The translations under genes and the position numbers were made by a program. From assembly GCA_964602805.1 (NCBI GenBank), contig CAZRSJ010000001.1, forward strand, positions 59,727 to 123,726: a DNA stretch of 64,000 nucleotides, read 5' to 3'. Each line of letters begins with the position of its first letter. The stretch's first letter is position 1. The notes beneath the pieces were generated by a model. It did no database searches, was not told where the DNA came from, and saw nothing but the letters and a program-made list of their open reading frames with translations. Origin of the DNA: an uncultured Chromatiales bacterium. GTDB lineage: Bacteria; Pseudomonadota; Gammaproteobacteria; Poriferisulfidales; Poriferisulfidaceae. Positions 5,747 to 56,030 of the stretch are shown here, in pieces.

Positions 5747-7102
5747 ATGAGGAAACTTATGAGAAAAACTACTTTTTGCACGGGGCTGGCAATGGCAGCT
5801 GCGATGGCGTGGACCGTTCCGGCACTTGCGGATGAAACCTGCATGTCGCCGTACATTGCCAAGATTCAAGGCCAGGAAGATTACGTCTATGTCTGGACCT
5901 TGGGCGTGGAAGGCATGGGGGACGAGCAGGACAAGCTGGTCACCATCGACACCAACCCCGAATCCAAAACCTATGGCCAAGTAGTCAGCGTACTGTCCGT
6001 CGGTGGGCGCAACGAAGCGCACCATTCCGGACTGTCTGACGACCGTCATTACCTGTGGGCTGGCGGACTGGACTCGAGCAAGATCTTCGTGTTCGACATC
6101 CACAGCAACCCGCGGCAGCCGAAACTGCACAAGGTCATCACCGACTTCGTCGAGAAGTCCGGCGGACTGGTCGGCCCGCACACCTTCTTTGCTCTACCCG
6201 GGCGGATGATGATTACGGCGCTGTCCAACAACGTCGATCACGGCGGACGCACCGGCGTGGCTGAATACAACAACGATGGCGAATTCGTGGCGTCCCATTG
6301 GATGCCGACGGACGAAGACCTTCGCGGCGCGGTCAAGACCGGCCAGCACGCCGACGGCTACGGCTACGACCTCCGGGTCAAGGCTGAAAGCAACGTGATG
6401 CTGACCTCGTCCTTCACCGGCTGGTCCAACTACATGATGGACTTCGGCCAGATGCTGCAGGACAGTGCTGCTATGCAGCGCTTCGGCAACACCATGGTGG
6501 TGTGGGACATGCATGCCCGCAAGCCGCTCAAGGTGCTGGACGTGCCGGGGGCTCCACTGGAGATCCGTTGCGCCTGGGGTCCGGATAACCGCTACTGCTT
6601 CACCACGACGGCGCTGACCTCTCAGGTCTGGCTCCTGTACGAGGATGAAGCCGGCGAATGGCACGGCAAGGCTGTCGCCGATGTCGGTGTCCCTTCTGAA
6701 ATTCCCCTGCCGGTCGACATTTCCATTACGGCCGACGACACGGGGCTGTGGATCAACACCTTCATGGACGGCAAGACCCGCTTCTTCGATATTTCCGACC
6801 CGCATGCGCCCAAGCAGGTCTTCGAGGAAGTGATCGGAAGCCAGGTCAACATGGTCTCCCAGAGTTGGGACGGCGACCGCGTGTACTTCTCCAGCTCCCT
6901 GCTGAATAACTGGGACAAGACGGGTGAAGCAGACGAGCAGTACGTCAAGCTCTACCACTGGGATGGCGAAGCACTCGCTCATCAGTGGACGGTTGATTTC
7001 TATGCCGAGCAGTTGGGCCGTTCGCACCAGATGCGTTTCGGTGCCTATGCCCTGTATGGGAAGCGCCCGGATGCCGACACCCGGACCGCGATGGCCGAAT
7101 AA
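5747..7102 (+). CDS. mtoX: Selenium-binding protein SBP56 family / methanethiol oxidase, with signal peptide
   Basis: 451 aa. Signal peptide (AMAAAMAWTVPALA). Conserved SBP56 blocks throughout (HHSGLSDDRHYLWAGGLDSSKIFVFD, GPHTFFALPG, WDMHARKP, NRYCFTT, DGDRVYFSSSLLNNWD). RBS GAGGAAAC upstream. Confidence 0.9.
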   Translation: MRKLMRKTTFCTGLAMAAAMAWTVPALADETCMSPYIAKIQGQEDYVYVWTLGVEGMGDEQDKLVTIDTNPESKTYGQVVSVLSVGGRNEAHHSGLSDDRHYLWAGGLDSSKIFVFDIHSNPRQPKLHKVITDFVEKSGGLVGPHTFFALPGRMMITALSNNVDHGGRTGVAEYNNDGEFVASHWMPTDEDLRGAVKTGQHADGYGYDLRVKAESNVMLTSSFTGWSNYMMDFGQMLQDSAAMQRFGNTMVVWDMHARKPLKVLDVPGAPLEIRCAWGPDNRYCFTTTALTSQVWLLYEDEAGEWHGKAVADVGVPSEIPLPVDISITADDTGLWINTFMDGKTRFFDISDPHAPKQVFEEVIGSQVNMVSQSWDGDRVYFSSSLLNNWDKTGEADEQYVKLYHWDGEALAHQWTVDFYAEQLGRSHQMRFGAYALYGKRPDADTRTAMAE

Positions 7103-7137
7103 CCTGTTGCGGCCTTCGGGCCAAACGCAAGTGGAAA

Positions 7138-7167
7138 GCCGCCCTGCCTGTCAGGGCGGCTTTTTTT
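7138..7167 (+). terminator. Rho-independent terminator after mtoX
   Basis: GCCGCCCTG-cctgt-CAGGGCGGC perfect 9-bp stem followed by TTTTTTT. Confidence 0.75.
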
Positions 7168-7220
7168 AGAAAGGCCATTGATTTTTGTATTTAAGAACAC
7201 CCTTATATAGAATAGAACCC

Positions 7221-7913
7221 ATGAATCGTTCGAACTGTATCCGCGCCCTAGCCGGGTTGGCTGCCCTGAGCCTGATCTCGGGGGGATTCGAGGCTGTCGC
7301 AGAAGATGAAATCCTCGCGCCCGGATGGAAAAACCTGAGCTACGAGCCGCCCGCTGTGGGCAGTTACCAACTGCCTCCCATCACCCGCGCCTCCGACGGA
7401 GCCGTACTCCTCGAAGACGGCCAAGAATCTCAGCTGTTCGACCTGATGGGTGACCGTCTCGTGCTGTTCAGCTTCATCTACACTCGATGCAACGACATCA
7501 ACGGCTGCCCTCTCGCCAATGCGGTCTTTCACAAGCTCCAAGCGAAACTGCAGGAGCGCCCGGATGTGGCCCAGGCCACACGGCTTCTATCGATATCGTT
7601 CGACCCGGAGCGCGACACCCCCGAAGTCATGCAGGAATTTGGGCAGGGACTTGGCGGCGACGGAGTGGACTGGCAGTTCCTCACCACGCGGGACCGCGAA
7701 ACCCTGGAGCCGATCCTCGACGATTACGGCCAGTACACCATACGCGAATACGATGAAAGCGGAGAATACACCGGGGATTTCGCTCATATGCTGCGGGTGT
7801 TCCTGATCGACCGGGAGTTGCGCGTCCGCAACATCTACAGCGTCGCATTCCTGCATGCCGACATCCTGATCAACGACCTGGAGACTCTCCTCCTGGAGTC
7901 TCCCTCTAGCTGA
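7221..7913 (+). CDS. SCO1/SenC-family copper chaperone (thioredoxin fold) with signal peptide
   Basis: Start chosen at MNRSNC (ATG 7221), 12 codons into the track ORF. Signal peptide, then the SCO1 block LFSFIYTRCNDINGCP with paired Cys and a downstream conserved His. Typical partner of mtoX. Confidence 0.8.
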   Translation: MNRSNCIRALAGLAALSLISGGFEAVAEDEILAPGWKNLSYEPPAVGSYQLPPITRASDGAVLLEDGQESQLFDLMGDRLVLFSFIYTRCNDINGCPLANAVFHKLQAKLQERPDVAQATRLLSISFDPERDTPEVMQEFGQGLGGDGVDWQFLTTRDRETLEPILDDYGQYTIREYDESGEYTGDFAHMLRVFLIDRELRVRNIYSVAFLHADILINDLETLLLESPSS

Positions 7914-7921
7914 TTCCCGTT

Positions 7922-9286
7922 ATGCACAGCCCGGCACGGATGCGTTTTCGCACCCTTGCCGTAACCCTTGCCGTTACGAGTTTTTGCGCTGCGGTCTTTG
8001 CCGAGACCAGCGGCGAACTGGATACCCCGGAGGAGTTCGACACCAGCCAAACGCAAGGACCCGGAGACGTCAAGGAAGGCTACGAAAGCAGGGACTACGA
8101 GACTCGCTCGCGAAGCTTGCTGAAGCGGCGGGGAGTCAAAAAAGACCTGATTCGCTTCGCGCAACACCCGCCGTTGGGCCTGCCGCCCGTACCAATCCCG
8201 GCTGAAAACCCACTGACCCGCGTCAAGATCGATCTCGGCCGAAAACTGTTCTTCGACCGCCGCCTGTCGATCAACGACACCTTCGCCTGCGCGACCTGCC
8301 ACATCCCGGAGCAGGGTTTCACCAACAACGAAATGCGCACCGCAGTCGGCGTGGAGGGCCGCTCGGTACTGCGCAACTCCCCCACCCTCTACAACGTCGC
8401 CTACCTGACACGGCTGTTCCTGGACGGACGCGAAATCAGCCTGGAAAACCAGATCTGGCAACCGATGACTTCGCACAACGAGATGGCGGCACCCTCAATC
8501 GGCTGGATCATCAACAAGATCCGCCGCATGCGCGACTACGACGGGTTGTTCGAGAAGGCTTTCGACGGCGAAGGGCCGAACATCCTCACGGTCGGCCAGG
8601 CACTAGCCAGTTACCAACGCACCCTGCTGGCGGCCAACTCACCGTTCGACCGATGGTATTTCGGGAATCAGACCGATGCAGTTGATGAGTCCGTCAAGCG
8701 GGGTTTCGGGGTCTTCTCCGGGAAGGGCCAATGCATTGTGTGCCATACCATGCAGAAAGAGCACGCCTTGTTCACCGACCAGAAATTCCACAATACCGGG
8801 CTGGGCTACATGATCTCGTTCAGCAAGGGCTCCAAGGACGCACCCAAGACCACCCGCGTCCAGCTCGCGCCCGGCGTGTTCGTGGACGTCTCGAACGAGA
8901 AAATCGAAGCGGTCTCGCAACAGAAACTGCCGAATGATCTCGGCCTCTACCGGGTCACCGAAAACCCGAACGACCGCTGGCGGTTCCGAACCCAGAGCCT
9001 GCGCAATGTTGAGTTGACCGCGCCCTACATGCACAACGGCAAGTTTGACACCCTGCGCGAAGTGATCGACTTCTACGACCAGGGTGGCATTCCAAATGAG
9101 CTGTTGTCTCCCTTTATCTCTCCCCTCAACCTCAGCGAACAGGAAAAACAGGACCTGGAAGCGTTCTTGCTTTCCCTGACCGGTAGCACCATCCCGGAAA
9201 TCGTGGCCGATGCCTTTGCCGCACCGATCGGCGACCTGAGCCTGGAAGATCCCAACTGGGCACACGAAGAGACGCTGGGATACTGA
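7922..9286 (+). CDS. MauG-like di-haem cytochrome c peroxidase
   Basis: Two CxxCH haem motifs (CATCH, CIVCH). CCP/MauG conserved blocks (SCATCH.P..GFT, NSPTLYNVA, MHNGKFDTLREVIDFY). Signal peptide. Confidence 0.85.
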   Translation: MHSPARMRFRTLAVTLAVTSFCAAVFAETSGELDTPEEFDTSQTQGPGDVKEGYESRDYETRSRSLLKRRGVKKDLIRFAQHPPLGLPPVPIPAENPLTRVKIDLGRKLFFDRRLSINDTFACATCHIPEQGFTNNEMRTAVGVEGRSVLRNSPTLYNVAYLTRLFLDGREISLENQIWQPMTSHNEMAAPSIGWIINKIRRMRDYDGLFEKAFDGEGPNILTVGQALASYQRTLLAANSPFDRWYFGNQTDAVDESVKRGFGVFSGKGQCIVCHTMQKEHALFTDQKFHNTGLGYMISFSKGSKDAPKTTRVQLAPGVFVDVSNEKIEAVSQQKLPNDLGLYRVTENPNDRWRFRTQSLRNVELTAPYMHNGKFDTLREVIDFYDQGGIPNELLSPFISPLNLSEQEKQDLEAFLLSLTGSTIPEIVADAFAAPIGDLSLEDPNWAHEETLGY

Positions 9287-9287
9287 C

Positions 9288-9791
9288 ATGAACCGTTTTC
9301 TTGCCCTGCTGCTCGGCAGCGCGCTTGCCCTAGGCACGATCAGTTGCAGCAACGAACCCGAATTGATGGAGCAGGCATCCGGGAAGCAAGCCCCCGACTT
9401 CGTGCTTCCAGATCTGGACGGTCAATCCTGGCAACTGAGCCAGGTTCGTGGCCAGACCCTGCTAATCAACTTCTGGGCCACCTGGTGTGAACCATGCCGG
9501 CGCGAGATGCCCGCGTTGAGCCAGCTCCATGAGGCCATGGCCGGCAAAGACTTCCAGGTCATCGGCATTCATGTCGGTCCCAGCAAAGAAATCGGCCGTT
9601 TCCTTGAAGAAACCCCCGTCAGTTTTCCGATCCTGATCGATGCGGATCTGGCTCTGGAGGACTGGAACGTTCCGATGTTGCCCGCAACTTTCCTGATTGA
9701 TGCAGAAGGATATGCCCGCTATTGGGCGTTTGGCGAACGAGAATGGGATTCGCCGGAAGCTGTGGAATTCTTCACCGCGGCTCTGGACTGA
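9288..9791 (+). CDS. TlpA/ResA-like periplasmic thiol-disulfide oxidoreductase lipoprotein
   Basis: Lipobox LGTISC. Thioredoxin motif WATWCEPCRRE. 1-nt spacing after the MauG-like gene stop. Confidence 0.85.
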   Translation: MNRFLALLLGSALALGTISCSNEPELMEQASGKQAPDFVLPDLDGQSWQLSQVRGQTLLINFWATWCEPCRREMPALSQLHEAMAGKDFQVIGIHVGPSKEIGRFLEETPVSFPILIDADLALEDWNVPMLPATFLIDAEGYARYWAFGEREWDSPEAVEFFTAALD

Positions 9792-10714: not shown

Positions 10715-11119
10715 TTAACTCTTAATCTCTATGCGCGACCGAAACCAGTCAGCCAGTTCACTTTCGCTAATCTCTCCCCCCGCAACCTCTTCCATAATCC
10801 TAATAGCATCGAAAGGATCGAATACGAGGCTCTGGTTATTGTCAACCAAAAACACGCGTGCCGTAACCCAGGCCGTACGCTTGTTGCCATCGACAAAACC
10901 ATGATTCCGGGCCAGGCCGAAAGCGTAAGCCGCAGCCAGTTCGGCGGCGTCCGGGTCGCCATAAGCGGAAAGATTTATCGGACGTGCTAACGCGGACTCG
11001 ATCACGCCAGAGTCGCGAATGCCGGATGCTCCACCATGCTCCGCAACTTGGCGATCATGGATCGCGAGAACGACAGGCAGGGCAACCCAACGCCATGGAC
11101 TAGAAATCTCCGCGCTCAC
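10715..11119 (-). CDS. doc: Doc (death-on-curing) family toxin, Fic fold
   Basis: 134 aa. Fic/Doc motif HGFVDGNKRTAW. 4-nt overlap with the upstream antitoxin gene. Confidence 0.85.
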   Translation of the reverse strand: MSAEISSPWRWVALPVVLAIHDRQVAEHGGASGIRDSGVIESALARPINLSAYGDPDAAELAAAYAFGLARNHGFVDGNKRTAWVTARVFLVDNNQSLVFDPFDAIRIMEEVAGGEISESELADWFRSRIEIKS

Positions 11120-11349
11120 TTGGCCAGAGCCCGCAATACCTCTCGGTCATCGTGCATTACTTTCTCCGCATGAGCCATCTGGCGTTCAAATTCAGGGTCG
11201 TACGGAGTCAACCGATAACTGCCATCCGGCGCCTCGGTCATGTATAGCATGTCGCCCTTCTCGACCCCAAGACGTGCCATCGCCTCTTTGGTCAAGATGA
11301 TGCCGGCGGAAGAACCCACCGTAGTTACTTTGAAAGACAGCATAATCAA
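11116..11349 (-). CDS. AbrB/MazE (SpoVT-AbrB) fold antitoxin partner of Doc (Phd-like)
   Basis: 77 aa. Swapped-hairpin N-terminal domain (KVTTVGSSAGIILTKEAMARLGVEKGDMLYM). Immediately upstream of doc. Confidence 0.75.
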   Translation of the reverse strand: MIMLSFKVTTVGSSAGIILTKEAMARLGVEKGDMLYMTEAPDGSYRLTPYDPEFERQMAHAEKVMHDDREVLRALAK

Positions 11350-11624
11350 ACCTCCGATCTTTATTATAACGGATATTATAATGTCTTGCGTGTAGCATCA
11401 GCAACGTTTACGACATCACGACCGCCTCATTTTGTGCTATTGTGAGCGAGTAGGCTGATTGTTTTCGCGGGGGCGGTTGCGTGTCCGAGTTTTATCCTCC
11501 CTAAATCGGTACCCTCCGTCCCCGCCTACTACACCACCCGAGAAAACACTACAGGCACCGCAGGCATATTGCGCCCGCAGTGCTCACGCGATATTGTTGA
11601 TCCCCTGCTTTTCCGATCGGGCGG

Positions 11625-11700
11625 TGGTGGGCCATCAGGGACTCGAACCCCGAACCTGCTGATTAAGAGTCAGTTGCTCTACCAATTGAGCTAATGGCCC
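11625..11700 (-). tRNA. tRNA-Lys (anticodon CUU)
   Basis: 76-nt cloverleaf read by hand: acceptor GGGCCAT/ATGGCCC, D-arm GCTC-AATTGGTA-GAGC, anticodon loop CTCTTAA, T-arm CGGGG-TTCGAGT-CCCTG, CCA encoded. Confidence 0.8.
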
Positions 11701-11709
11701 ATCCTGGGA

Positions 11710-11786
11710 TGGGGTGAGCGACGGGATTTGAACCCGCGACCTCAGGAGCCACAATCCTGTGCTCTACCGACTGAGCTACGCTCACC
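11710..11786 (-). tRNA. tRNA-His (anticodon GUG) with G-1
   Basis: 77 nt. G-1 pairs with C73. Acceptor GTGAGCG/CGCTCAC. Anticodon loop TTGTGGC. CCA encoded. Confidence 0.85.
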
Positions 11787-11796
11787 GCCGATCGAC

Positions 11797-11873
11797 TGGC
11801 GCGCCCGGCAGGACTCGAACCTGCGACCCTCGGTTTAGAAGACCGATGCTCTAATCCACTGAGCTACGGGCGC
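11797..11873 (-). tRNA. tRNA-Arg (anticodon UCU)
   Basis: 77 nt. Nearly identical framework to E. coli argU (GCGCCC..TAGCTCAGT.GGAT.AGAGCA...CTTCTAA...GCAGGTTCGA.TCCTGC.GGGCGCGCCA). Confidence 0.85.
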
Positions 11874-11910
11874 GATTCATCCTTGAGTCGAGACTCCGGA
11901 CACTGTCTGC

Positions 11911-11987
<77 letters not shown>

Positions 11988-12067
11988 CCGTGCGAAGTTT
12001 ATCAGATGGACGCCCCGGCACAGTCTTTCGTGCGGGGTCGGACCGCATGAAAACCGGCTGATCTGGT

Positions 12068-13426
12068 TTACGCCTTTCTCAAACGCCAGCCGTACATCAC
12101 CCGCCCGTAAAAGTTGAACCACTTCCTCGCTTCGGGGTCTTGGAACGGATAGTCCGCCCCGAGTTGTCTTGCCGTCACAAGGCCGGTCACGAAGCAGGTC
12201 TCCTGGCTGTTGATCAAGGTATGGGCGCCGCAGTGCCGCGTTCGTCTCTTGCCCTGAATGAAGCGGAACATGGGAACCAGAAGGATCACGTGGCGCACAT
12301 CGTGCACGATGTGCTGGAACCACCACTTCTTGATGACCTTGTCCTCGTCAATGTGGCTGATCGGATTGTAGGTCACCAGGCAGGGCTTGTCCGATTGCTT
12401 CGCCCAAGGCTGCTGGTTATGCATGATGTAGGTGATTTCGTAGTTGTCGGGCCTCGCCCCGTACTGTTCGATGTGGTTGCTCCGGGTGTCGAGTTCCTTG
12501 ACGTCGGTGTCCGGGAGAATCGAAGCATCCGAATGAATAATCGTATGGTTGTGCAGTTCGCTTTCATAGCGAATCGACGAGAGGAGCCATCTCTCAAGGA
12601 AGGTCGGCTTATCCAGCATCATCAGCGTCTGATTCGCGTTGCACGCGAAAATCACTTCGTCGAATGTCTCCGTTTGTCCGTTTTCATCCTCAACGACCAC
12701 ATCGGAGTCGCCTCGATACACTTTCCGAACCGGTCGGTCAAGATAGATCTTGTCCTGGAAATCAGCCGACAACTCTCGATAGATCCGCTGCGTGCCTTGG
12801 TCCCAGGTCTGCATCGGCGTCGCGCGTTCAATGTCGAAGAACTCCAGGTAGCGGGCGAACAGGGCCGCCGGCATGTCGAACACGTTCGTGGCCATCAGGA
12901 AGTTGACGAACATGGGCTTCAGGATCTTGTACCGGAAATCCCCGGACAACCCGCCCAGATTGAGAACCGTGCCCATACTGACGTAGTTGAACGGGTTGAG
13001 GGCGTTGAGCAGCTTGGATCTGGACCGATTGAGTTGGCCAAACCATTTGAGGCGTTTCAGGATCTTCTGGAACTTCTCGATTTCCGGTTGCAGTTGCCGC
13101 CTGATGTCGGAATCGAAATCGTGAGCGTAGACGCCGCCACGGTATTTCACGCTGTAGCTGAACTGGGTGTCCACCAGTTCGATCCCGTACTGCTTCAGGA
13201 TCAGGAGAATATGGTGGTATACCGTGGGAATGCACGCGGTGACGGAAATATCGAACGGAATCGAAGTCCCGTCTTCTTGCGGCATCTCAACCGTAACGGC
13301 ATTGCCGCCAAGCTGAGACTGTGCTTCGAACAATCGAAAATCGAATTGATTGGGGTGCCGATGAAGTGTCCAAGCTGCCCCCAATCCTGAAACTCCCCCG
13401 CCGATTATCGCAATTTTTTTTGGCAT
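12068..13426 (-). CDS. NAD(P)/FAD-dependent oxidoreductase (amine-oxidase-like Rossmann protein)
   Basis: 452 aa. N-terminal dinucleotide-binding motif KIAIIGGGVSGLGAAW...LFEA...LGGN. Divergent from the DUF2282 operon. Confidence 0.8.
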   Translation of the reverse strand: MPKKIAIIGGGVSGLGAAWTLHRHPNQFDFRLFEAQSQLGGNAVTVEMPQEDGTSIPFDISVTACIPTVYHHILLILKQYGIELVDTQFSYSVKYRGGVYAHDFDSDIRRQLQPEIEKFQKILKRLKWFGQLNRSRSKLLNALNPFNYVSMGTVLNLGGLSGDFRYKILKPMFVNFLMATNVFDMPAALFARYLEFFDIERATPMQTWDQGTQRIYRELSADFQDKIYLDRPVRKVYRGDSDVVVEDENGQTETFDEVIFACNANQTLMMLDKPTFLERWLLSSIRYESELHNHTIIHSDASILPDTDVKELDTRSNHIEQYGARPDNYEITYIMHNQQPWAKQSDKPCLVTYNPISHIDEDKVIKKWWFQHIVHDVRHVILLVPMFRFIQGKRRTRHCGAHTLINSQETCFVTGLVTARQLGADYPFQDPEARKWFNFYGRVMYGWRLRKA

Positions 13427-13681
13427 GGCTGCGTCCGCTTCACACGTGGCTTCTATCTGCCACTATCCGCGATTTCCTCCCGTGAAATTCGATGCCAGAC
13501 CCGGCATATGTTGCGGGAAATTATACGCAATGACCCCTAAACGACTGCAATCCGTGCCACCAAACCTCCGCTCACACCTGAAACTAGTGATGATTCTGGA
13601 CACGAGGGAACAAAAGGGTAACAATGCTGTCAATAGTCCAAGGGATTTATCCCCCCCTCTGTTAATCAACCTAAGGCAAAC

Positions 13682-13966
13682 ATGAAAAAATCACACTCTC
13701 TAGCATCCAGCCTGATTGTGCTGGCACTCGGCTCCGGCTTGGCTTCCACTTCCGCATTGGCGGTTCCCGATGCCCCCAAGAACTGGGAAAAATGCACGGG
13801 TATTTCCAAGGCCGGAATGAATGACTGTGGCGCGACGGATGGCGCTCACAGGTGTGCCGGCGCAGCTCCGGAAGATGGCATGGAAACCGAATGGATTTAT
13901 GTTCCGGAAGGCACCTGCGAGAAGATCGTGGGCGGGGCCATATACGCAGTCAAGCCTGCAAAATAA
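13682..13966 (+). CDS. bufA: DUF2282-family Sec-exported small Cys-rich protein (bufferin-type RiPP precursor, BufA-like)
   Basis: 94 aa. Signal peptide [27 protein letters not shown]. Core with four Cys in the family-typical contexts EKCTGI, NDCGA, HRCAG, GTCEKI. Confidence 0.85.
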
Positions 13967-13973
13967 CCCTTTG

Positions 13974-14810
13974 ATGCCTGCCGTAGACACGGCGACTCCA
14001 CTCACGGGAATGGGGGTCGGTTTACGCGGCCCCCACGTCCCGGACATCCTGCAGCAGAGCCCTGCGGTTCCTTGGTTCGAGCTTCTGACCGACAACCATT
14101 TGTGCGCAGGAGGTGCCCTCAGGTTTCAAGCCGAAGCCATTGCCGAACAATATCCGGTGGCCCTGCATGGCGTCAACCTTTCTCTCGGCGGTGTTGACCC
14201 GCTGGATCACGAATATCTTGGCCGGGTTCGGGCTCTCGCCAAAAACACCGGAGCCCGCCATGTCTCGGAACATCTTGCTTTCACGGCCTGCAACGGCGTC
14301 CACAGCCATGACCTCCTTCCATTGCCATGGACCGAAGAAGCCCTGCAACACGTAGCAGGTCGAATCTCCGAGGTTCAGGATTTTCTCGGCCAGAACATCC
14401 TGGTCGAGAACATTTCCACTTATCTGGAATACGAACATTCCACTCTGAGCGAAGGCGATTTCCTGCTGGAACTCTGTACGCGGACCGGTTGCAAACTTCT
14501 CCTGGACATCAACAACGTCTACGTCAACTCGGTCAACCACAACCACGATCCACACGACCTGTTGAACACCATGCCCTGGGCACATGTGCGCGAGGTTCAT
14601 CTGGCGGGCCACGAAGAACGCGATGGACTTTTGATCGATACGCACGGGGGATGCGTCTGTGATGAAGTCCTGAACCTTTTCCTGGACGTGGTCCCACGTA
14701 TCCCGGAGGTTCCGGTCCTGTTCGAGTGGGACACTTCGCTGCCTCCATGGCCCGTCGTCTGGCAGGAAACCCAGCGACTTGACAAGGCCTATCAGGCCGC
14801 GTGCGCATGA
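13974..14810 (+). CDS. bufB: DUF692 / UPF0276 TIM-barrel protein (multinuclear non-haem iron oxidative enzyme, MbnB/BufB-like)
   Basis: Start taken at ATG 13974, 8 nt after the bufA stop; the track ORF begins earlier, overlapping bufA. Conserved DUF692 blocks (GVGLR, HGVNLSLGG, VSEHLAF, LVENISTY, LLLDINNVYVN, REVHLAGH). Confidence 0.85.
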   Translation: MPAVDTATPLTGMGVGLRGPHVPDILQQSPAVPWFELLTDNHLCAGGALRFQAEAIAEQYPVALHGVNLSLGGVDPLDHEYLGRVRALAKNTGARHVSEHLAFTACNGVHSHDLLPLPWTEEALQHVAGRISEVQDFLGQNILVENISTYLEYEHSTLSEGDFLLELCTRTGCKLLLDINNVYVNSVNHNHDPHDLLNTMPWAHVREVHLAGHEERDGLLIDTHGGCVCDEVLNLFLDVVPRIPEVPVLFEWDTSLPPWPVVWQETQRLDKAYQAACA

Positions 14811-15613
14811 ATCTTGCGGAACTCCAGACCAAGATACTGGAAGCGGTAACCCGAACGGGAAGCGCAGACCCTGGGCTCGACTCCTTGATCCCTCCGGCCC
14901 GCGGCATTCGCCCGGAAATGCGACTGGATGCCTACCGGACCAACGTCAGAGGGGCGCATTTGGAAGCACTTGATGCCGCTTATCCGGTTACCCGGGAGGT
15001 CTTGGGGCCCCGGTATTGGCGACAACTTCTAGCACAAGAAATCCCGGCATTCGGTTCCCGTTCCCCGGATCTGCATGAATATGGCGATTTCCTGCCCGAA
15101 CTGCTCGGCCGGGTACAGGAAAGTCGCAAGGAATTAGCTGATCTCGATTATCTCGGTGAACTCGCGCAACTTGAATGGCAAGTCCATCTGGCACAATTCA
15201 AGGCACCGGATCCGGATTTTGACTGGGTCGCTTTTCAAGCCCTAGAATCGGATCACCAGATGCGGGTTCAGTTCACTCTGAGCCATGCATTGCACTTGAT
15301 GCGATTCTCTCAGCCCGTCGATGCACTTTGGCATTCCCATCAGGAAAATGGCCTGGATCTCCCACCCCAGTCTCCGGTGACCTGTTGCGTGCACAGGCAA
15401 AAATCGTTCGATGTGACTGTCACCCGGCTATCCGACAGCGATCAAAAGTTGCTGGAAGCGCTGGGCGAAGGTCAGTGTCTCGAAGCCTTGCCTGTCGGTG
15501 ATTCGCAAGCGGCAGTTGAGACGTTGTTCGACTGGATTCAGATCGGGTGGATAAGTGGCTTCTCGCGAGAGCCGGTCACACGAACATCAAAACCAATCCA
15601 GACTAGCACTTAG
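14801..15613 (+). CDS. bufC: DUF2063-family protein (partner of DUF692 enzymes, BufC-like)
   Basis: 270 aa. 10-nt overlap with the bufB end. N-terminal block LQTKILEAV...[19 protein letters not shown] typical of DUF2063. Confidence 0.8.
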
Positions 15614-37229: not shown

Positions 37230-37237
<8 letters not shown>

Positions 37238-40200
37238 GGCTCACCTCTGCCTGCTCGACCATTTCCATCGCCTGAGCCACGTTCACGGTAACCAGCCGGG
37301 ACACGCCGGGCTCGTTCATCGTCACTCCGACCAACTGGTCGACATGCTCCATGGTGATCTTGTTATGCGTGACGATGATGAACTGAACCTGTTCGCTCAT
37401 CTCGTTCAGAATCTGGCAGAAGCGCAGCAGGTTGTCATCGGACAAGGGGGCATCCACCTCGTCCAGGATGCAGAACGGCGCCGGGTTCAACATGAACAGC
37501 GATAGCACCAGCGACACGGCGACCATCGCCTGCTCCCCGCCGGACAGCATGTGCATGTTGCGGTAGCGCTTCCCGGGAGGGCGTGCACGGACTTCGATGC
37601 CGGTGCTGAGGAGGTTTTGCTCGGTCATCACCAAGTTGGCCTCACCACCCTCGCCGATGATGCGCGGGAACATCTGCTTCAGGTTTTCATTGACCTGGCT
37701 GAACGTCCGGCGAAAACGCTCGCGTGTCTCACGATCAATTTTCTCCATGGCATGATTCAGTTTTTCAAGTGCCGCCTGAATGTCGTTCATCCGCTCTTCT
37801 TCCTTGTTCTTCTTCTCCAGCAACTCATCGTATTCCTGTGCTGCCGCCATGTTGACCGGCGGCATTCTCTCCAGTCGGCGCAGGACCCGGGTCACCTTCT
37901 CTTCCCACTGGTCCGCATCGGCATCCTCCGGCAGGGTCTGCAGAATCTGCTCGGGTTCGCATTCCTGTTCGCGCAGTTGGCTGAGCAGTTGCTCGCAGGC
38001 GTTCTGAATCTCCTGCCGCTTCAAGTCTTTGTCGTGCAGATCCTTCCCCAGTTCCGTGAACCTTTGGTTGGACTCCCAGCGCTTGCGGTCCAACTCGCTC
38101 AACTCCGAGTTCAACTGGTCGGATGCGGCCCGTTCCCGGCGCAAATGCTCTTCCGCTTCCCGCTCTTTTTCCCGCTTTCCCTTCAACTGTTGTTCCAGGT
38201 CTTCGTCTTCCTGAACCTCAGCCAGGCCCTGCGACAGTTGGTCCCGGCGTATGCGATGCCGCTGCAACGTGTTCTGTTCCCGGGACAATTGCTGCTGCCG
38301 GGTTTCGATCTTCATCTGCGCCGTATTGACCTCTAGTTGAAACCGGTTCAGTTCCTCGGACTGCCGCCGGACCTCCTCGTCGCTTTTGCGCAGGACTTCC
38401 TGTGCGTCTGTATGGGCCGCATCCGCGCGAACGCTGTCCTGATCCAAGTCCTTGATCTGCTGTTCGCACCTCTGCAGCCTGTTTTGGGATTGTCGAATAT
38501 TCTGTTGCAATTTTTCCAGCCGCTGAGCCTGGTTTTCGAGCCCCTGCAGTTGAGCCTTGCTGGCAGCGAATTCCTCGAATGCCTGATCATATTCGGCCTG
38601 CAGGGCGGAACGACTCTCTTCCTGCTGCCTCAATTCCTGCTCCGCAGCCTGCTTGTGCTGCCCGATTTCCCTGGATTCGGATTCCAACTGCTTCAGCTTT
38701 TCTCCCAGCGCCTCGATTTCACGCCGCCGTTCCAGCGCCCCTTCCGCCTGGCCTTCCGCAGCAGGTAGACGCATCCAGTCCGGACCCAGCCAAACTCCGC
38801 TCTGGGTGATAATCGATTGATGCGGCAGCAATGAATCGCGCACAGCGTAGGCCTGCTCCAGAGTCTCCGCAGCCAGCACTCCGCCCAGTTGGGACTCCAG
38901 CGAGAACGGGCTCTTGACCCGGCTCGCCAGCGACATGCGGTCAAGTTCGCGCGTCCCGGACGACCGGCGATCCAGCAACATCAGCGGGCTGGTCCCCGGC
39001 ACTCGCGTTTCATCGACCGTCTCTGGCAGCCCTTCCACGCAAAACGCTTCCAGGTTTTCCGCCAACACGGTTTCCACCGCGAATTCCCAACCGCTTTCTA
39101 CTTCGATATGGTTCATCAGGCGTTCTCCCTGCAGGCGCATCTCCTGCAGGGCTTTCGCATGCGCTTCTGAATCACTCGTCAGGCCGGCTTGTTGCAGGGC
39201 TTCCAGCGAAGCCAGGCGCCCCTGCGCCTGGGTCTTCTGCTCTTGCGCTGCTGACAATGCTTCCGCGTGCCGCTTCAGATCCAGACGAGCCTGCTGAATC
39301 TGATCCCAGTTCTGCTCCAGCTGCTCTTTGCACTGCTGCCAGGAAAGCCTCGCTGCATCGCATTTCTCTTTCAACGCGGTCCGCGGGTCTCCGCTTGCTT
39401 CCACCGCTCCCCCTGTCTCCCGCAGATGCTGCAATTCGTTCTTGGATTGCTGCAATTGCGTCTGTTCCCGGGTCCGTTCTTCACGAATGGAGCCGATCTG
39501 TTCTCGAATCGTGTCGATTTTTTCCTGGCACTGCCGGAGAGCCTCGACCTGCTGCGTTCTCAAGGTTTCCGTCTTTTCTTGTTCAGCCTGAATTCTGGCC
39601 AATTCCTGGCGATTCTGGTCATGTTGCTGCCCCAGACGCTGCAAATCCTCCCGAACTTTCTCTCCGCTCTCCTCCAACTCCCCGATCTCCACATCCAGCC
39701 GTTCGATTTCCTGGACCGCCTGATCTTTCCGCTCGCGTTGCAGCCGGATCCGCTGATCTATGGAGCCCGCGTCCGCCAAGAGTTGCTGGTGGAGCGCCGC
39801 CGCTTCATCCGTTGACCGCCGGTTCAGATCGTATTCGCTGCGTTTTTTCTCATAATCCTCGTTCAAGGCCTTCAGCTTGTTCTCCTCCTGAACACGTTTT
39901 TTCTCGACGCCTGCGTATTCCTTTTCCCGGTCTTCCAAGATCTTGCTTTGCTCCTGAAGTTGCAGGCTGAACCATTCGTTTTCACGCGCACGATGTTCTT
40001 TCTGCAGGGATTCAAGCTTGCTCGCCTGTCCTTTTTGCTGTTTCAAATGGCGCAAGTGTTGTTCGTGCTCTTGCAGTATGTCCTGCAGCCGGCTGAGATT
40101 CTCTTCGGTGCGGCGTATCCGGTTTTCGGTGTCCCGGCGACGTTCTCGGTACAGGGAAATCCCGGCGGCTTCCTCAATGTACTTGCGCATCTCATCAGGT

Positions 40201-40670
40201 TTCGCCTCGATCAGCCCCTGCACCATGCCTTGGGCAATGATGGCGTAATTGCCCCGGCCGAGTCCGGTTCCCTGGAACAGGTCGGAGACATCCTTGCGGC
40301 GGACATGAGTGCCGTTGATGTAGTAGCGGGACTGGTGCTCCGCTTCACGGGAGACTTCGCGGCGGATCCTGATTTCGCTGAAATTCGCGTATTCGCCTCC
40401 GATCCGCCCGAGGCTGTTGTCGATGACGACTTCGATCGAAGCCTGATCCAGCCGCTTCCGGGAATCCGAACCGTCGAAGATGATGTCGTCGAGAGTTTCG
40501 CCACGGATGTTGCGGGCGCTTTCGCCGAGAACCCAGCGGATGGCATCGATGATATTGGACTTGCCGCAACCGTTGGGACCGACCACGCCGGTCAGCGGCA
40601 GATCGAAGATGACTCGGGTCGGCTCCACGAAAGATTTGAAGCCGGACATCTGGATGCTGGTCAAGCGCAT
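37230..40670 (-). CDS. smc: Chromosome partition protein SMC
   Basis: 1146 aa. N-terminal Walker A GPNGCGKSN. Long coiled coils, hinge, and C-terminal signature LSGGE...Walker B ILDEVDA. Confidence 0.9.
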
Positions 40671-49763: not shown

Positions 49764-50054
49764 TCAGTCCTCGATCACAGCCATGATGTCGTCTTCACGC
49801 ATCACTACCAGTTCATCGCCGTCCAACTTGCATTCGGTTCCAGAGTACTTGCCAAACAGGACATTGTCGCCAACCTTAACACCCATCGCTTGGGTCTCTC
49901 CGTTGTCAAGAACCTTCCCGGGACCCACCGCGAGCACTTCGCCGCGTACTGGTTTTTCCGCAGCACTATCCGGGATGACAATACCTCCGGGACTGGTGCG
50001 CTCTTCTTCAAGTCGTTTGATCACGACACGGTCATGTAAGGGCCGAAGTTTCAT
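49764..50054 (-). CDS. groES: Co-chaperonin GroES
   Basis: 96 aa. [11 protein letters not shown]-terminus and mobile loop. Confidence 0.95.
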
Positions 50055-50139
50055 CGAAAACTCCTAATCATTCAATTAATCAATAATTTAAGTAGACTAA
50101 GGCGGTGATGAGGATCTGCTCTTTCCCGCCTCTGTCATC

Positions 50140-50185
50140 CCTCTATATGGGGGGCAAGCAATTATATACAAGAGGCGTGCCCGTT
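50140..50185 (-). promoter_or_regulatory. Candidate sigma32 (heat-shock) promoter of groESL
   Basis: Minus-strand reading cTTGtAt-N14-CCCCCATAT approximates the sigma32 consensus CTTGAAA-N13-15-CCCCATNT, about 90 nt upstream of groES. Confidence 0.35.
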
Positions 50186-50213
50186 ACAATATATAGAGCC
50201 CCTTCCCACAGTC

Positions 50214-51782
50214 ATGCACTCTTCTGATTCTCTGGTTATCCGTCGCGCGCTCCTGAGCGTTTCAGACAAGACTGGCATCGTCGACCTTGCCCGGACGCTG
50301 GCCGAGAACGGTATTGAACTGATCTCCACTGGCGGCACGGCCGCGATACTTCGCGAAGCGGGCTTGACGATTCGTGAGGTTTCCGAATTGACCGGCTTCC
50401 CGGAAATCATGGACGGACGGGTCAAGACTCTCCACCCCAAAGTGCACGGAGCCTTGTTGGCACGAGGTGAACAAGACCTTGATGTCTGCGCCCTGCATGG
50501 CATTGAGCCCATTGATCTCCTGGTGGTCAACCTTTACCCATTCGCTCAAACGGTTGCCAAACCAGATTGCGACTTCCAGGAAGCGATCGAGAAAATTGAT
50601 ATCGGCGGTCCTGCCATGTTGCGCGGCGCAGCCAAAAACCATGCACATTGCTGTGTTGTGATTGATCCTTCCGACTATGCCAGCATTGCCGAAATCGTCA
50701 GCACCGGAGAGGGTGTTAGCGAAGAGATCCGATTTGATCTTGCCGTCAAGGCCTTTTCGCATGTCGCAGCCTACGATTCCGACATTGCGCATTATCTTGG
50801 GTACCAACTTGAACCGGATAATTTTTTCGGGCAGGGCATGCATCTGACTCTGAAACGTCAATCCATGCTGCGCTATGGCGAGAATCCGCATCAACAAGCA
50901 GCGCTCTACAGTTTTGAGAATCCTCCACCAGGCTCCCTGACTGCCGCCACGCTTCATCAGGGGCAAGAACTCTCTTACAACAATCTTCTTGATACGGATG
51001 CAGCTTGGGAGTGTGTCCAGGCATTCGAAAAACCCGCCTGCGTCATCGTCAAGCACGCCAACCCCTGTGGCGTAGCGGAAGCACGCAATATTGAGGCTGC
51101 CTACGAAGGCGCTTACCGTACCGACCCAACTTCGGCATTTGGCGGGATTATCGCGTTCAATCGGATCGTGCCCGGCCCCCTCGCCCAGACCATCATCGAA
51201 CAGCAATTCGTGGAAGTGTTGATTGCGCCGAGTTTCCGGAAAAATGCACTGCAGGTCCTAGCCAAGAAACCTAAAGTGCGGGTACTTTCCGCAGGTACTC
51301 CCCAAGCGGGTAAGCAGTGTGCAACCGTGCGCAGCATCAGTGGCGGGCTACTTGGGCAAACCCCGGATCACGCACTTCTTGACCCTAAGGCGTTACGCAT
51401 GGTGACCAAACGCTCTCCAACCGAAGACGAACATCAGGATCTTCTGTTTGCCTGGAAAGTTGCCAAGTTCGTCAAGTCCAACGCCATTGTCTACGCACGC
51501 GACCGATGCACTGTCGGAGTTGGTGCGGGACAGATGAGCCGGATCTATTCTGCGCGAATCGCTACCATTAAGGCTGCCGACGAGAATCTTTCGCTAGACG
51601 GCGCCGTGATGGCTTCAGATGCGTTCTTCCCATTTCGAGATGGGGTTGATGCCGCCCACGAAGCTGGCATTACAGCAGTTATCCAACCGGGCGGCAGCAT
51701 GAGAGACGATGAAGTCATTGCCGCGGCCGATGAACACGGCATAGCGATGGTGTTCACAGGAATGCGTCATTTCCGGCATTAG
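50214..51782 (+). CDS. purH: Bifunctional AICAR transformylase / IMP cyclohydrolase
   Basis: 522 aa. MGS-like N-domain ([10 protein letters not shown]). AICARFT domain. Confidence 0.95.
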
Positions 51783-51825
51783 GCAGATATGTCAACAGCA
51801 TACACAGTCTGATTCACAGATTCGT

Positions 51826-52473
51826 TTACACAGAAGGCAACTCGAAAACTCGCCTAGCTATAAAAAGTCCGACAATTTTTGCCTTTGGAAAACATCTAGA
51901 TAGAACTGTTTCCATTGCTTGGAAGTGCGCTCCCGTCGTAAGAACATCATCAACAATGGCGATATAGTTGGGAATAGGCGTTAATAGGCTATTGTCTACA
52001 TCATAACGCTCCTGATATTGTTGAGGAGTAGGCCGTTTTTTTGTTTCGTGAGCGGCTTTGTAACTTCTTTGCTGGATGATGATTTCTCGAATATCCAACG
52101 GATGGTCTGGCCTAATGGTATACAACATTTTTGTCAGCCTGTCATCGTAAAGAGGATGTTTTTTAGCTTTCGATGGTGGAATCGGCACAAAAGTCAACTG
52201 CTCCAGTTGATTCTGAGTTAGGGCAACTCGAAATGCAGTTGCCACTTGTCTGATTGCTCGTTCTTTATGAGGCCAGTCTGGTGATTTTTTTCGGTCCAAT
52301 GATTTTTTAAAGTTTAAAATTAAACTATTGGTTTTACTGTAGGCATAACCTTGCTCTGCGGTGTATTCACCAAGAAAATAACAATTGTCAGTGTCTTCCA
52401 GATAATAATAATCTGACCGTGTCAGATCATCAATCTTGGTGAAGTGCGGGGGTAAGATGCTTTCGAATATCAT
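51826..52473 (-). CDS. Type-I phosphoribosyltransferase-domain protein (ComF-like PRTase; ShosT-like toxin candidate)
   Basis: C-terminal PRPP-binding motif IAIVDDVLTTGAHF. Start uncertain: the track ORF starts at 52509; MIFES at 52473 used here. Overlaps the upstream DprA-like gene by 44-80 nt. Confidence 0.6.
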   Translation of the reverse strand: MIFESILPPHFTKIDDLTRSDYYYLEDTDNCYFLGEYTAEQGYAYSKTNSLILNFKKSLDRKKSPDWPHKERAIRQVATAFRVALTQNQLEQLTFVPIPPSKAKKHPLYDDRLTKMLYTIRPDHPLDIREIIIQQRSYKAAHETKKRPTPQQYQERYDVDNSLLTPIPNYIAIVDDVLTTGAHFQAMETVLSRCFPKAKIVGLFIARRVFELPSV

Positions 52474-53338
52474 CGTAATCTCGAACTCGCAGGGCCCCTT
52501 TAGCGGCAAATTTTTCTGGCCAAGTTAGGCGCGAATTGCGAAAGCAACTATTAAGGATGAATAGTTTTCGCTTTTGGCGCAGTGCCGCACGTGCCTGAAA
52601 TAACGTTCCAGATGTTTCACTGGCCTCGACAATAATAGTTGCCTCCGTGAGTGCGGACATCGTTACATTACGTTCGGGAAAGAAAGTACGGTTATATCGG
52701 TAGTCCTGAGACTCATAACGCTGAAGCGGAACCTGGCTGATGACCAGAAAATGCTCTGAGATATAGCGCTGCAACTCAGCATTATCTTTCGGGTAGAAAT
52801 GCGAAAGTGGAGTACCTATTACTGCGATAGTTTTCCCTCCCCCTTCAATAGCGGTTGTATGGGCCACTTTGTCAATGCCAGCCGCTAACCCAGAAACAAT
52901 TGTGAATCCGTTTTGTACTAGTTGTTTCACTAGCTTTCGTGCTCGCGCGAGCCCTTCCTTAGTAGGGCGTCTAGTCCCCACTACCGCAACAGAGGGCGAT
53001 GCTACTAGATCCCACCAACCTTGATAGTACAGAAGTTCGACAGGATATGCTGCGTCTCTCAATTTTTTCGGATATTCTGCTCCACCGTATACACGCACCC
53101 CGAAATCATGAATACCGGCCTCTTCAAACTTTTGCTTTACGGAAACTGCACACTCATGAGCTTGCTCTTCCGGTACGAAACTTGATGGAATGCTACCGGG
53201 ATGACGAGCAAATTCTTCTGCCAACGATTTAAAAGTCGTTTCAGGCCTTGACCATAGCGCTTCATATGCCCCCATCTCATGAAATGGTGAAATGGCTGAA
53301 AGCCCATAATTCGCCCTTTCGAGTTCAAGATTAGACAT
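52430..53338 (-). CDS. DprA/Smf-family (SLOG Rossmann) protein lacking the C-terminal winged helix (ShosA-like antitoxin candidate)
   Basis: DprA Rossmann-core motifs YP..L......P.LLY..G......SPSVAVVGTRRPT..G...A..L...L...G..IVSGLAAGIDKVAHTTAIEGGGKTIAVIGT. ATG at 53336-53338 with GGGGAGA RBS. The track ORF begins 5 codons earlier at a TTG. Confidence 0.6.
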   Translation of the reverse strand: MSNLELERANYGLSAISPFHEMGAYEALWSRPETTFKSLAEEFARHPGSIPSSFVPEEQAHECAVSVKQKFEEAGIHDFGVRVYGGAEYPKKLRDAAYPVELLYYQGWWDLVASPSVAVVGTRRPTKEGLARARKLVKQLVQNGFTIVSGLAAGIDKVAHTTAIEGGGKTIAVIGTPLSHFYPKDNAELQRYISEHFLVISQVPLQRYESQDYRYNRTFFPERNVTMSALTEATIIVEASETSGTLFQARAALRQKRKLFILNSCFRNSRLTWPEKFAAKGALRVRDYDDIRKHLTPALHQD

Positions 53339-53446
53339 TACACATCTCCCCAATGAACATCATGTTGTCATGACAGTTCATACAATTTAAAAGTTTAGTA
53401 GTAGCATCTTTTTGGCAGAGATTCTACCAACTAAAAAGTTTTGAAC

Positions 53447-53980
53447 TTATCGATTGAAAGGTAGCTTGGCCAACATCATCGCCATCCCGCAGGAACCGGT
53501 AGCGCCCGAAAACAGAAGGCCTGCCCCAATGAAGCCAGACAATCCGAAAAACCCAGGATGAACCCATACTCCCAAGATGACACCCAGTAAAACCAAGCTG
53601 CCCGCCACAATCTGGACTTGGCGCATGATTTCGATCGGGGCCCCGGAATCTGAGGCGATCGGATAACCCGCTTTCTTCCAAGCCATGATGCCTCCCTCCA
53701 AGATATACGTCTCGGGGTAGCCAACGGCCGCAAGTTGATCCGCATGAACCTGCGTACGGCGACCGCTTCGGCAATGGAAAATTCCGATTTTCTGATGTGG
53801 CTCAGCTTTCAGGCCCGCTTCCAATCCGGTCAGGGGAATCCACCGCGCCTCTGGAATTCTCATCTGGCCGCGCTCCCCAGGGTCCCGAATATCAATCAAC
53901 TCGGCCCGACCTTCATCTAACCAGCGCCGGGCTTCGCTTACCTTGATTTCTTGAACATCCATCATCCGCCTCCGCGTCAT
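53447..53980 (-). CDS. Rhodanese domain fused to a DUF2892-type membrane anchor (YgaP-like)
   Basis: Rhodanese active-site loop CRSGRRT. C-terminal two TM helices with GxxxG-rich segment. Confidence 0.75.
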   Translation of the reverse strand: MTRRRMMDVQEIKVSEARRWLDEGRAELIDIRDPGERGQMRIPEARWIPLTGLEAGLKAEPHQKIGIFHCRSGRRTQVHADQLAAVGYPETYILEGGIMAWKKAGYPIASDSGAPIEIMRQVQIVAGSLVLLGVILGVWVHPGFFGLSGFIGAGLLFSGATGSCGMAMMLAKLPFNR

Positions 53981-54081
53981 TATTGCGATTGTACACCCGG
54001 CCCTTCCTAAAACCCAGACTGATTTCTCTCGGCTCTAACGGTAAGAATTCCGCATGTCTCCCATCCCACATAAACGCTCCA

Positions 54082-55704: not shown

Positions 55705-56030
55705 ACCGCGACGACAGCGAACATCAACTGGCGTTGCTCAAGAAGAGACAGCGGCATATGCCCGCGTTCGGTTCGTTTTCGGTCGAGCCAGCTGACCAAT
55801 TGCGGCCAGCGCAGGATCAGGTACAGGTAGGTGGCACCATGCAAGCCGAGATGAAGCCAGAAGCCATAGCGTTCAAGAAATTCCCGCCACCGCGCCAGAT
55901 ACGTTGCCGTGCGATTCAGGTGTTCAGGCGTTGCGGCAGCCAACTGCTGCACGGCATAGATGAGCGCGATACCCAACACGAGGGTGGCTAACAACACCCC
56001 CAATATTCGGCGCGACCGGGGACCGGTCAT
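55659..56030 (-). CDS. Small ICE-associated membrane protein
   Basis: 123 aa, 3 hydrophobic helices. Overlaps neighbours on both sides. Confidence 0.4.
   Translation of the reverse strand: MTGPRSRRILGVLLATLVLGIALIYAVQQLAAATPEHLNRTATYLARWREFLERYGFWLHLGLHGATYLYLILRWPQLVSWLDRKRTERGHMPLSLLEQRQLMFAVVAVCVAYEVLLLLRNLD

Follow-up and report, generated by a model that had tools for sequence, protein, structure and literature searches.

A probable minimal Buf1-type bufferin operon from a gammaproteobacterium of the sponge-associated 'Candidatus Porisulfidus' clade

The stretch of DNA analyzed here (the window, 64 kb in full length) carries, between positions 13427 and 15613, three plus-strand genes that very probably form a minimal Buf1-type bufferin (captophorin) operon of a sponge-associated 'Candidatus Porisulfidus' gammaproteobacterium, with the modification of the encoded peptide and its binding of copper being assigned by homology. 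As established from the listing of open reading frames (ORFs) and by direct reading of the sequence, these are bufA (13682-13966), which encodes a 94-aa precursor of the Buf1/DUF2282 family; bufB (13974-14810), which encodes a 278-aa multinuclear non-haem iron oxidase (MNIO, formerly DUF692) of the bufferin maturase subfamily; and bufC (14807-15613), which encodes a 268-aa DUF2063 partner protein (PME1 type) whose C-terminal domain is RRE-like. The bufferin/captophorin class, its chemistry and its role in relation to copper are already known from publications of 2024-2026, and curated NCBI models exist for it, so that the locus represents a further member of a characterized and named class and not a discovery.

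Profile searches place each of the three proteins far above chance in the family proposed for it by a preliminary description of the same DNA, which had read the genes as DUF2282, DUF692 and DUF2063 in this order and at this place. BufA matches PF10048 (DUF2282/BufA1) with an E-value of 1.1e-21 and 77 bits (cut-off 22.4), the alignment spanning positions 1-52 of the 53 in the model, and its length of 94 aa falls inside the 80-120 aa span of Buf1-type precursors; the accession previously given for DUF2282, PF09988, was wrong, the correct one being PF10048. BufB matches PF05114 (MbnB_TglH_ChrH) with an E-value of 5.3e-97. Against MNIO_BufB, the curated NCBIfam equivalog for an 'MNIO family bufferin maturase' (NF050167), it scores 324.9 bits, above the cut-off of 310, and it remains under the NCBIfam cut-offs of HvfB, ApyH, ChrH, and MbnB. 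BufC matches PF09836 (DUF2063) with an E-value of 1.9e-13 and 50.9 bits (cut-off 27.2), and shows in addition a weak match to NGO1945_C (E 5e-4). The three families, the order and translational coupling of the genes, the signal peptide, the four-cysteine pattern and the lack of DoxX and sigma/anti-sigma genes together fit the published definition of a Buf1-type cluster (PMC11626156, PMC12452194), which upholds the bufferin-type reading that the preliminary description had put forward.

The precursor BufA begins with a predicted Sec signal peptide of 27 residues (13682-13762, plus strand), in which the n-, h- and c-regions can be told apart: a basic n-region (MKK) is followed by a hydrophobic core with Kyte-Doolittle 9-mer means of up to 2.46 and by an AxA site, ALA, which precedes the predicted cut before VPD and is aligned across 74 homologues. 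BufA had been described before as a Sec-exported protein of 94 residues with its cysteines in the contexts EKCxG, NDC, RCxG, and GTCEK; the predicted n/h/c regions and the AxA site agree with the former, and all four contexts are indeed found. The 67-aa core (13763-13963, plus strand) carries these cysteines at core positions 11, 22, 31, and 52, and all four of them (C38, C49, C58, and C79 of the precursor) are invariant among the 74 homologues, as are E36, N47, D48, H56, W71, P75, G77, K81, G84, and G85. An AlphaFold model of the core, built on the homologue alignment, has a predicted local distance difference test score (pLDDT) of 96-98 and places the first cysteine (CysI) within strand 1 and the fourth (CysIV) within a short helix, a placement that has been confirmed for Buf1 by nuclear magnetic resonance; a fold search of the PDB with this model gave no match. 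The precursor holds a single EKCTG, without repeats, and the monoisotopic mass of its core is 6963.25 Da when unmodified and 6953.17 Da for the predicted product.

All nine metal-site residues of the MNIO family are kept in BufB and align with the metal site of 3BWW, which is also its best PDB sequence match (E 5.5e-51). Across 86 homologues H65, H100, E145, D178, N180/N181, H209, D222, H224, and E251 are invariant, and the metal-site residues also align with N175, D242, and H244 of HvfB, which are needed for the activity of that enzyme. For BufC, a sequence search of the PDB returned no match, and its relatives surfaced by fold comparison only: the AlphaFold model (mean pLDDT 89.4) has as its best PDB fold matches 3DEE (NGO1945), the archetypal DUF2063 partner, and TglI (8HCI_A), which is part of the TglHI holoenzyme, with a probability of 1.00 for each, MbnC coming next and weakly. 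Because its fold matches those of TglI and NGO1945, BufC is taken to be an MNIO partner protein and not a DNA-binding regulator, and the earlier designation of the third gene as the DUF2063 partner is confirmed by the PF09836 score and the fold match alike. Experiments on homologues have demonstrated that BufB and BufC are both needed for modification.

The boundaries of the three genes could be refined by comparison with orthologues, which led to the correction of both spacings that had been given before. The stop codon of bufA (13964-13966) and the ATG of bufB (13974) are separated by a gap of 7 nt instead of 8 nt, and this bufB start is conserved among the orthologues; an internal methionine at 14010, which is chosen by some gene callers, was rejected, the relatives having Leu or Thr at that position. 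At the junction of bufB and bufC, every orthologue has an [A/G]TGA (ATGA here) in which the bufC start, ATG 14807 in the window, overlaps the stop codon of bufB, and a GTG at 14801, which is not conserved among them, was rejected as the bufC start; the overlap therefore amounts to 4 nt and not to 10 nt. A Shine-Dalgarno-like TAAGG (13672-13676, plus strand), identified by direct reading 5 nt before the bufA start, is conserved as (A/G)AGG in the orthologues. At its 3' end bufC runs for 11 nt (15603-15613) into the convergent tyrS, and no intrinsic terminator was found after bufC. Other strains carry insertions of zeta-toxin or Fic-like modules between bufC and tyrS.

The genomes closest to that of the window are metagenome-assembled genomes (MAGs) from sponge-associated bacteria labelled 'Candidatus Porisulfidus' (including TsSOB), together with one of the Oxydemutatoraceae; the circular assemblies of these closest genomes measure 1.6-2.1 Mb, and related contigs have lengths of 1.35 Mb and 2.6 Mb. 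An identical BufA is encoded on at least 22 metagenome contigs, and bufABC is present at all 12 of the 12 related species-level loci (L007-L018), with the order bufABC, tyrS, M23 peptidase, anmK, erpA being kept, down to a BufB identity of 74%, everywhere except in L015 and L018. Pairwise ratios of nonsynonymous to synonymous substitution rates (dN/dS), calculated against six orthologue loci (L012-L017), are 0.02-0.09 for bufA, approximately 0.1 for bufB, and 0.09-0.2 for bufC, and these low values indicate that all three genes are maintained by strong purifying selection. The minimal bufABC is kept at every related species-level locus of this uncultured sponge-symbiont lineage, the genomes of which range from 1.35 to 2.6 Mb, and such retention under strong purifying selection speaks for an important role of the peptide in the sponge habitat.

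Among known systems, buf1ABCD of Caulobacter vibrioides (CCNA_03363-03366; Leprevost et al. 2024, PMC11626156) displays the same gene order, with a DUF2282 precursor bearing a Sec signal, an MNIO and a DUF2063 protein. The cysteines at core positions 11/22/31/52 of 67 in the present BufA correspond to positions 12/23/31/52 of 68 in Caulobacter Buf1, and the predicted fold of BufA matches the published one. Caulobacter Buf1 undergoes a mass change of -4.03 Da on each of CysII and CysIII and forms a disulfide between CysI and CysIV (PMC11626156); it binds copper 1:1 with a dissociation constant (Kd) of ~1e-15 to 1e-20 M, and MNIO-PME1 pairs generally install 5-thiooxazoles. From homology to Caulobacter Buf1 we infer the modification chemistry, the identity of the modified cysteines, and the copper binding of the BufA studied here. 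In the mechanism proposed, BufA would be made with its Sec signal peptide and, before export, would be acted upon by a BufB-BufC complex, in which BufC, with its DUF2063/RRE-like architecture, may present the substrate to the enzyme. BufB would then perform an iron-dependent four-electron oxidation of core Cys22 and Cys31, giving rise to 5-thiooxazole rings; only these two central cysteines are expected to be converted, and the outer two should form a disulfide. The peptide would subsequently be exported and its signal peptide cleaved after ALA, following which the Cys11-Cys52 disulfide would staple the small beta-sheet fold, allowing the 67-residue periplasmic product to bind one copper ion via the thiooxazole N and S atoms (2N2S) and so to buffer periplasmic copper.

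Some observations weigh against assigning the locus to the Buf1-type bufferins in this manner. BufD/DoxX, a frequent companion that has been reckoned to the 'core' genes of bufferin clusters, is missing; the spacing between CysII and CysIII is 9 residues here and 8 in Caulobacter; there is no recognizable copper-responsive operator upstream of bufA; and the assignment of the promoter is ambiguous between an ECF-type (extracytoplasmic function) and a sigma-70-like motif. As to the first of these, the preliminary description had already remarked that DoxX and a sigma/anti-sigma pair were missing, and this was borne out by tblastn of the whole 64-kb window with seeds taken from the relatives, which revealed no homologue of DoxX, the ECF sigma factor or the anti-sigma factor (best E 0.15). 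No homologue of the three was found in the flanks of the Porisulfidus loci either, and of the best 120 matches listed for a profile of the cluster-type ECF sigma factor, none lay on a Porisulfidus-sized chromosome. In this the locus differs from Caulobacter buf1, which has bufD (DoxX) as well as a nearby sigF/nrsF pair. However, bufD is not treated as obligatory in the literature, Caulobacter buf2 being likewise devoid of DoxX (PMC11626156, PMC12452194).

Other copper-binding peptides made by related enzymes share part of these features. The HvfABC-type captophorins oxazolin, fontiphorin, and gonophorin likewise depend on an MNIO and a DUF2063 (PME1) partner and are Sec-exported, copper-binding peptides with 5-thiooxazoles; the precursors of the oxazolin/HvfABC type, however, are EGKCG repeat peptides, whereas BufA is a folded DUF2282 domain, and against the corresponding models BufB reaches 248.7 bits for HvfB (cut-off 360) and BufC 50.4 bits for HvfC (cut-off 142). 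With the methanobactin system, MbnABC, the locus shares an MNIO of homologous fold and metal site, the involvement of a partner protein, and, by prediction for BufA, a cysteine-derived heterocycle that binds copper, but the score of BufB against the MbnB model TIGR04159 is 48.6 bits at a cut-off of 325. Methanobactin chemistry is moreover of the oxazolone-thioamide kind, its precursor consists of a short leader and core with no Sec signal, and the product is a secreted chalkophore for copper uptake served by dedicated transport genes, none of which is present at the locus. Finally, the bulbicupramide cluster of marine Microbulbifer (PMC12538549) provides a case of a copper-binding RiPP conserved genus-wide in sponge- and coral-associated gammaproteobacteria, and bulbicupramide is grouped in the literature with the 5-thiooxazole captophorins. 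Its precursor is of another class, and its hosts are cultivable commensals whose genomes are large, as opposed to the DUF2282 precursor and the reduced-genome symbiont lineage seen here.

The uncultured, sponge-associated host with its small genome is unlike Caulobacter, and its type of promoter is probably different as well. The closest homologues outside Porisulfidus, which belong to Woeseiaceae, Kangiellaceae, Oceanospirillum, Bermanella, and Thiotrichales MAGs (L019-L034), encode BufA and BufB proteins that are 56-68% and 44-67% identical, respectively, and have the three genes in common with the present locus, likewise without DoxX. In these relatives, directly after bufC, there is an ECF sigma gene, its identity being supported by a Pfam match, together with a gene for a protein of ~210 aa without a Pfam match, which is probably an anti-sigma factor; the window contains neither. 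The motif CAATC-N16-CGT is found before bufA in nine of the nine ECF-sigma relatives with enough upstream sequence, and the motif TGCAATCAAA-N12..13-CGTCTT occurs ~70-100 nt 5' of bufA in all nine, as well as in L038, a locus with DoxX. In more distant relatives, DoxX follows bufC instead of the ECF sigma gene. Porisulfidus possesses neither the CAATC-N16-CGT motif nor the cluster sigma genes.

In Porisulfidus, the sequence 5' of bufA is conserved from ~90 nt ahead of the start codon onwards, also in strains with a different upstream gene, and this conserved block contains GGAAC-N17-GTC (13607-13631). With a spacer of N17..19, the motif stands 5' of bufA in 18 of 22 loci of the Porisulfidus clade, including L016 and L088, the upstream regions of which are otherwise unalignable, and in 0 of 52 other loci. 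RpoE-type ECF promoters have the form GGAACTT-N16-TCAAA, which the Porisulfidus motif resembles in sequence. The candidate ECF-type promoter of the window (13607-13634, plus strand) comprises GGAAC at 13607-13611, 17 nt, and GTC at 13629-13631, which runs into TCAAT at 13630-13634; it is overlapped on the same strand by a sigma-70-like alternative, consisting of TGGACA at 13597-13602, 17 nt, and AACAAT at 13620-13625. The operon is probably expressed from the ECF-type (RpoE-like) promoter and not by means of a cluster-encoded ECF sigma/anti-sigma pair, although this is the weakest step of the interpretation. The replacement of the cluster ECF sigma factor, anti-sigma factor and promoter, i.e. 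regulatory loss combined with re-wiring, offers a natural case in which the control of bufferin expression might be dissected.

A search for copper-responsive elements in the 255 bp upstream of bufA (13427-13681), which had been suggested together with the original reading of the genes, found none: no CueR/MerR-type operator matched in this region, and window-wide counts of such matches were at chance. A repeat resembling the CusR/CopR 'copper box', TAACAAtgCTGTCA, is located at 13619-13632 with two mismatches to the consensus TGACAAnnTTGTCA, or one in close relatives; CusR-box-like sites number 3 in the window versus 1.76 expected, which is not significant, and since the conservation of the half-sites is more in keeping with a -10 element than with a palindrome, the repeat provides only a weak lead. 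An Rfam scan found no RNA regulatory family in the leader, only tRNAs being matched, and the 5' leader RNA of bufA folds no better than shuffled sequences (z = +1.28). Positions 13640-13656 of the leader hold a short inverted repeat, GGGAT-TT-ATCCC, after which come seven consecutive C residues that are conserved; L014 has GCG...CGC at the position of this repeat.

The same genes and the same chemistry would also be compatible with a physiological role other than that of a stress-induced sink, namely that of a housekeeping periplasmic reservoir or donor of copper for cuproenzymes such as methanethiol oxidase and cytochrome c oxidase, a reading that we regard as unlikely. Genes for copper-enzyme maturation recur in the neighbourhood of bufABC within the Porisulfidus clade. 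The window itself contains, 4 kb 5' of bufA and conserved in its clade, an SBP56-SCO1-MauG-redoxin cluster (5747-9790, plus strand), in which genes for SBP56, a selenium-binding/methanethiol-oxidase-like protein (5747-7102), SCO1/SenC (7185-7913), and a MauG/di-haem peroxidase (7922-9286) all lie on the plus strand, and which looks like a cluster for the maturation of a copper-dependent methanethiol oxidase. In L089, this cluster ends ~1.1 kb 5' of bufA, with one small opposite-strand ORF in between, while in L087 (1-3860; BufA 80% identical) and L088 (785-3906; BufA 70% identical) bufABC lies directly 3', on the same strand, of COX3-SURF1-CtaA-CtaB and of COX2-COX1-SCO1-like genes, respectively. 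Furthermore, the stress-type ECF sigma/anti-sigma pair and promoter of the nearest free-living relatives are gone in Porisulfidus, and the operon is kept in genomes of 1.35-2.6 Mb. Taken with the disappearance of the dedicated stress sensor, the linkage to cuproenzyme genes leaves room for a housekeeping role in copper supply. The linkage is confined, however, to three contexts, being found neither within 8 kb in L014-L018 nor in the free-living relatives, and synteny in compact genomes may come from the deletion of intervening DNA; the Kd of Buf1 for Cu(I), ~7e-20 M, also argues for sequestration and against donation. A more specific version, in which the Porisulfidus operon was stripped of the ECF sigma/anti-sigma pair and of DoxX, re-wired to a general RpoE-like envelope promoter, and kept as a constitutive copper supply for SCO1-dependent cuproenzymes, appears quite unlikely to us. 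If true, it would imply a change of role from an inducible metal defence to a constitutive supply of copper. The repeated SCO1/cuproenzyme linkage suggests a testable tie between bufferins and the maturation of copper enzymes.

The identity of the metal might also be questioned, as expression of the homologous gig operons of Cupriavidus, Legionella, and Caulobacter is switched on by metals that include gold and cadmium, bufferin-MerC fusions are known (PMC12452194), and, according to the literature, the specificity of 5-thiooxazole peptides for particular metals has been assessed incompletely. That the product is a thiooxazole metallophore with a physiological metal other than copper (such as gold, cadmium, zinc, mercury, or silver) is improbable, nonetheless, given that Buf1 produced in E. 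coli under a mixture of metals bound copper selectively, that the characterized MNIO-PME1 products all bind copper, and that the core residues of BufA near the modified cysteines are conserved with the family. Even further from what we would expect, to the point of being hardly credible, is the view conveyed by the older annotations, according to which BufA would be an unmodified cysteine-rich membrane or periplasmic protein, the DUF2063 protein a DNA-binding regulator, and the DUF692 protein a sugar-isomerase-like enzyme acting on an unrelated substrate. The Pfam entry for PF10048 does still read 'Predicted integral membrane protein' and that for PF09836 'Putative DNA-binding domain', and BufB has a weak match to the AP_endonuc_2/xylose-isomerase TIM-barrel (E 4e-4). 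The only hydrophobic segment of BufA, however, is that of its signal peptide, the remainder being modelled as a small soluble domain; the fold of BufC is of the MNIO partner type; BufB scores above the cut-off of the bufferin-maturase equivalog and retains a complete set of iron ligands; and the older annotations are contradicted by the published work on homologues, in which BufB and BufC were both required for modification.

The preliminary description had stated that the operon diverges from an FAD-dependent oxidoreductase gene and had called this context atypical. A divergent gene of this kind, encoding an LkcE-like amine oxidase, does exist next to bufA (12068-13426), but it is present in only a part of the closest relatives: it is missing from L001, L002, and L007, the BufA of which is identical, and from L014-L018. 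In L001, L002, and L007 its place is taken by other small genes, e.g. a PIN toxin gene in L002. The oxidoreductase was hence rejected as a partner of the cluster, and its patchy distribution at a variable spot means that the 'atypical context' is a local polymorphism and not a meaningful feature of the operon. A cluster of four tRNA genes (tRNA-Lys/His/Arg/Pro, 11625-11987) lies on the far side of the oxidoreductase gene from bufA. The entire stretch between folP and bufA (10715-13426) is variable, gaining and losing toxin-antitoxin genes. Among strains with identical BufA, some have the oxidase here and others do not, and the same is true of PIN and other toxin-antitoxin genes; in the window the stretch holds a Fic/Doc toxin gene (10715-11119) and a gene for a MazE-like antitoxin (11116-11349).

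Two further features were observed elsewhere in the window. The F-type conjugative transfer genes TraG_N (54082-55704) and TraC (57355-60249), both on the minus strand, lie in a region (54082-60249) that is adjoined by a stretch of low G+C content (50000-54000; 0.47-0.52 vs ~0.59 elsewhere), and these Tra genes and the low G+C content together suggest an integrated conjugative element, or the remnant of one, in a small symbiont genome. A strongly negative AT skew (-0.317) at 38001-40000 falls inside a gene for an SMC-like protein of 1146 aa (37230-40670, minus strand) and is probably a compositional effect of its coiled-coil coding region.

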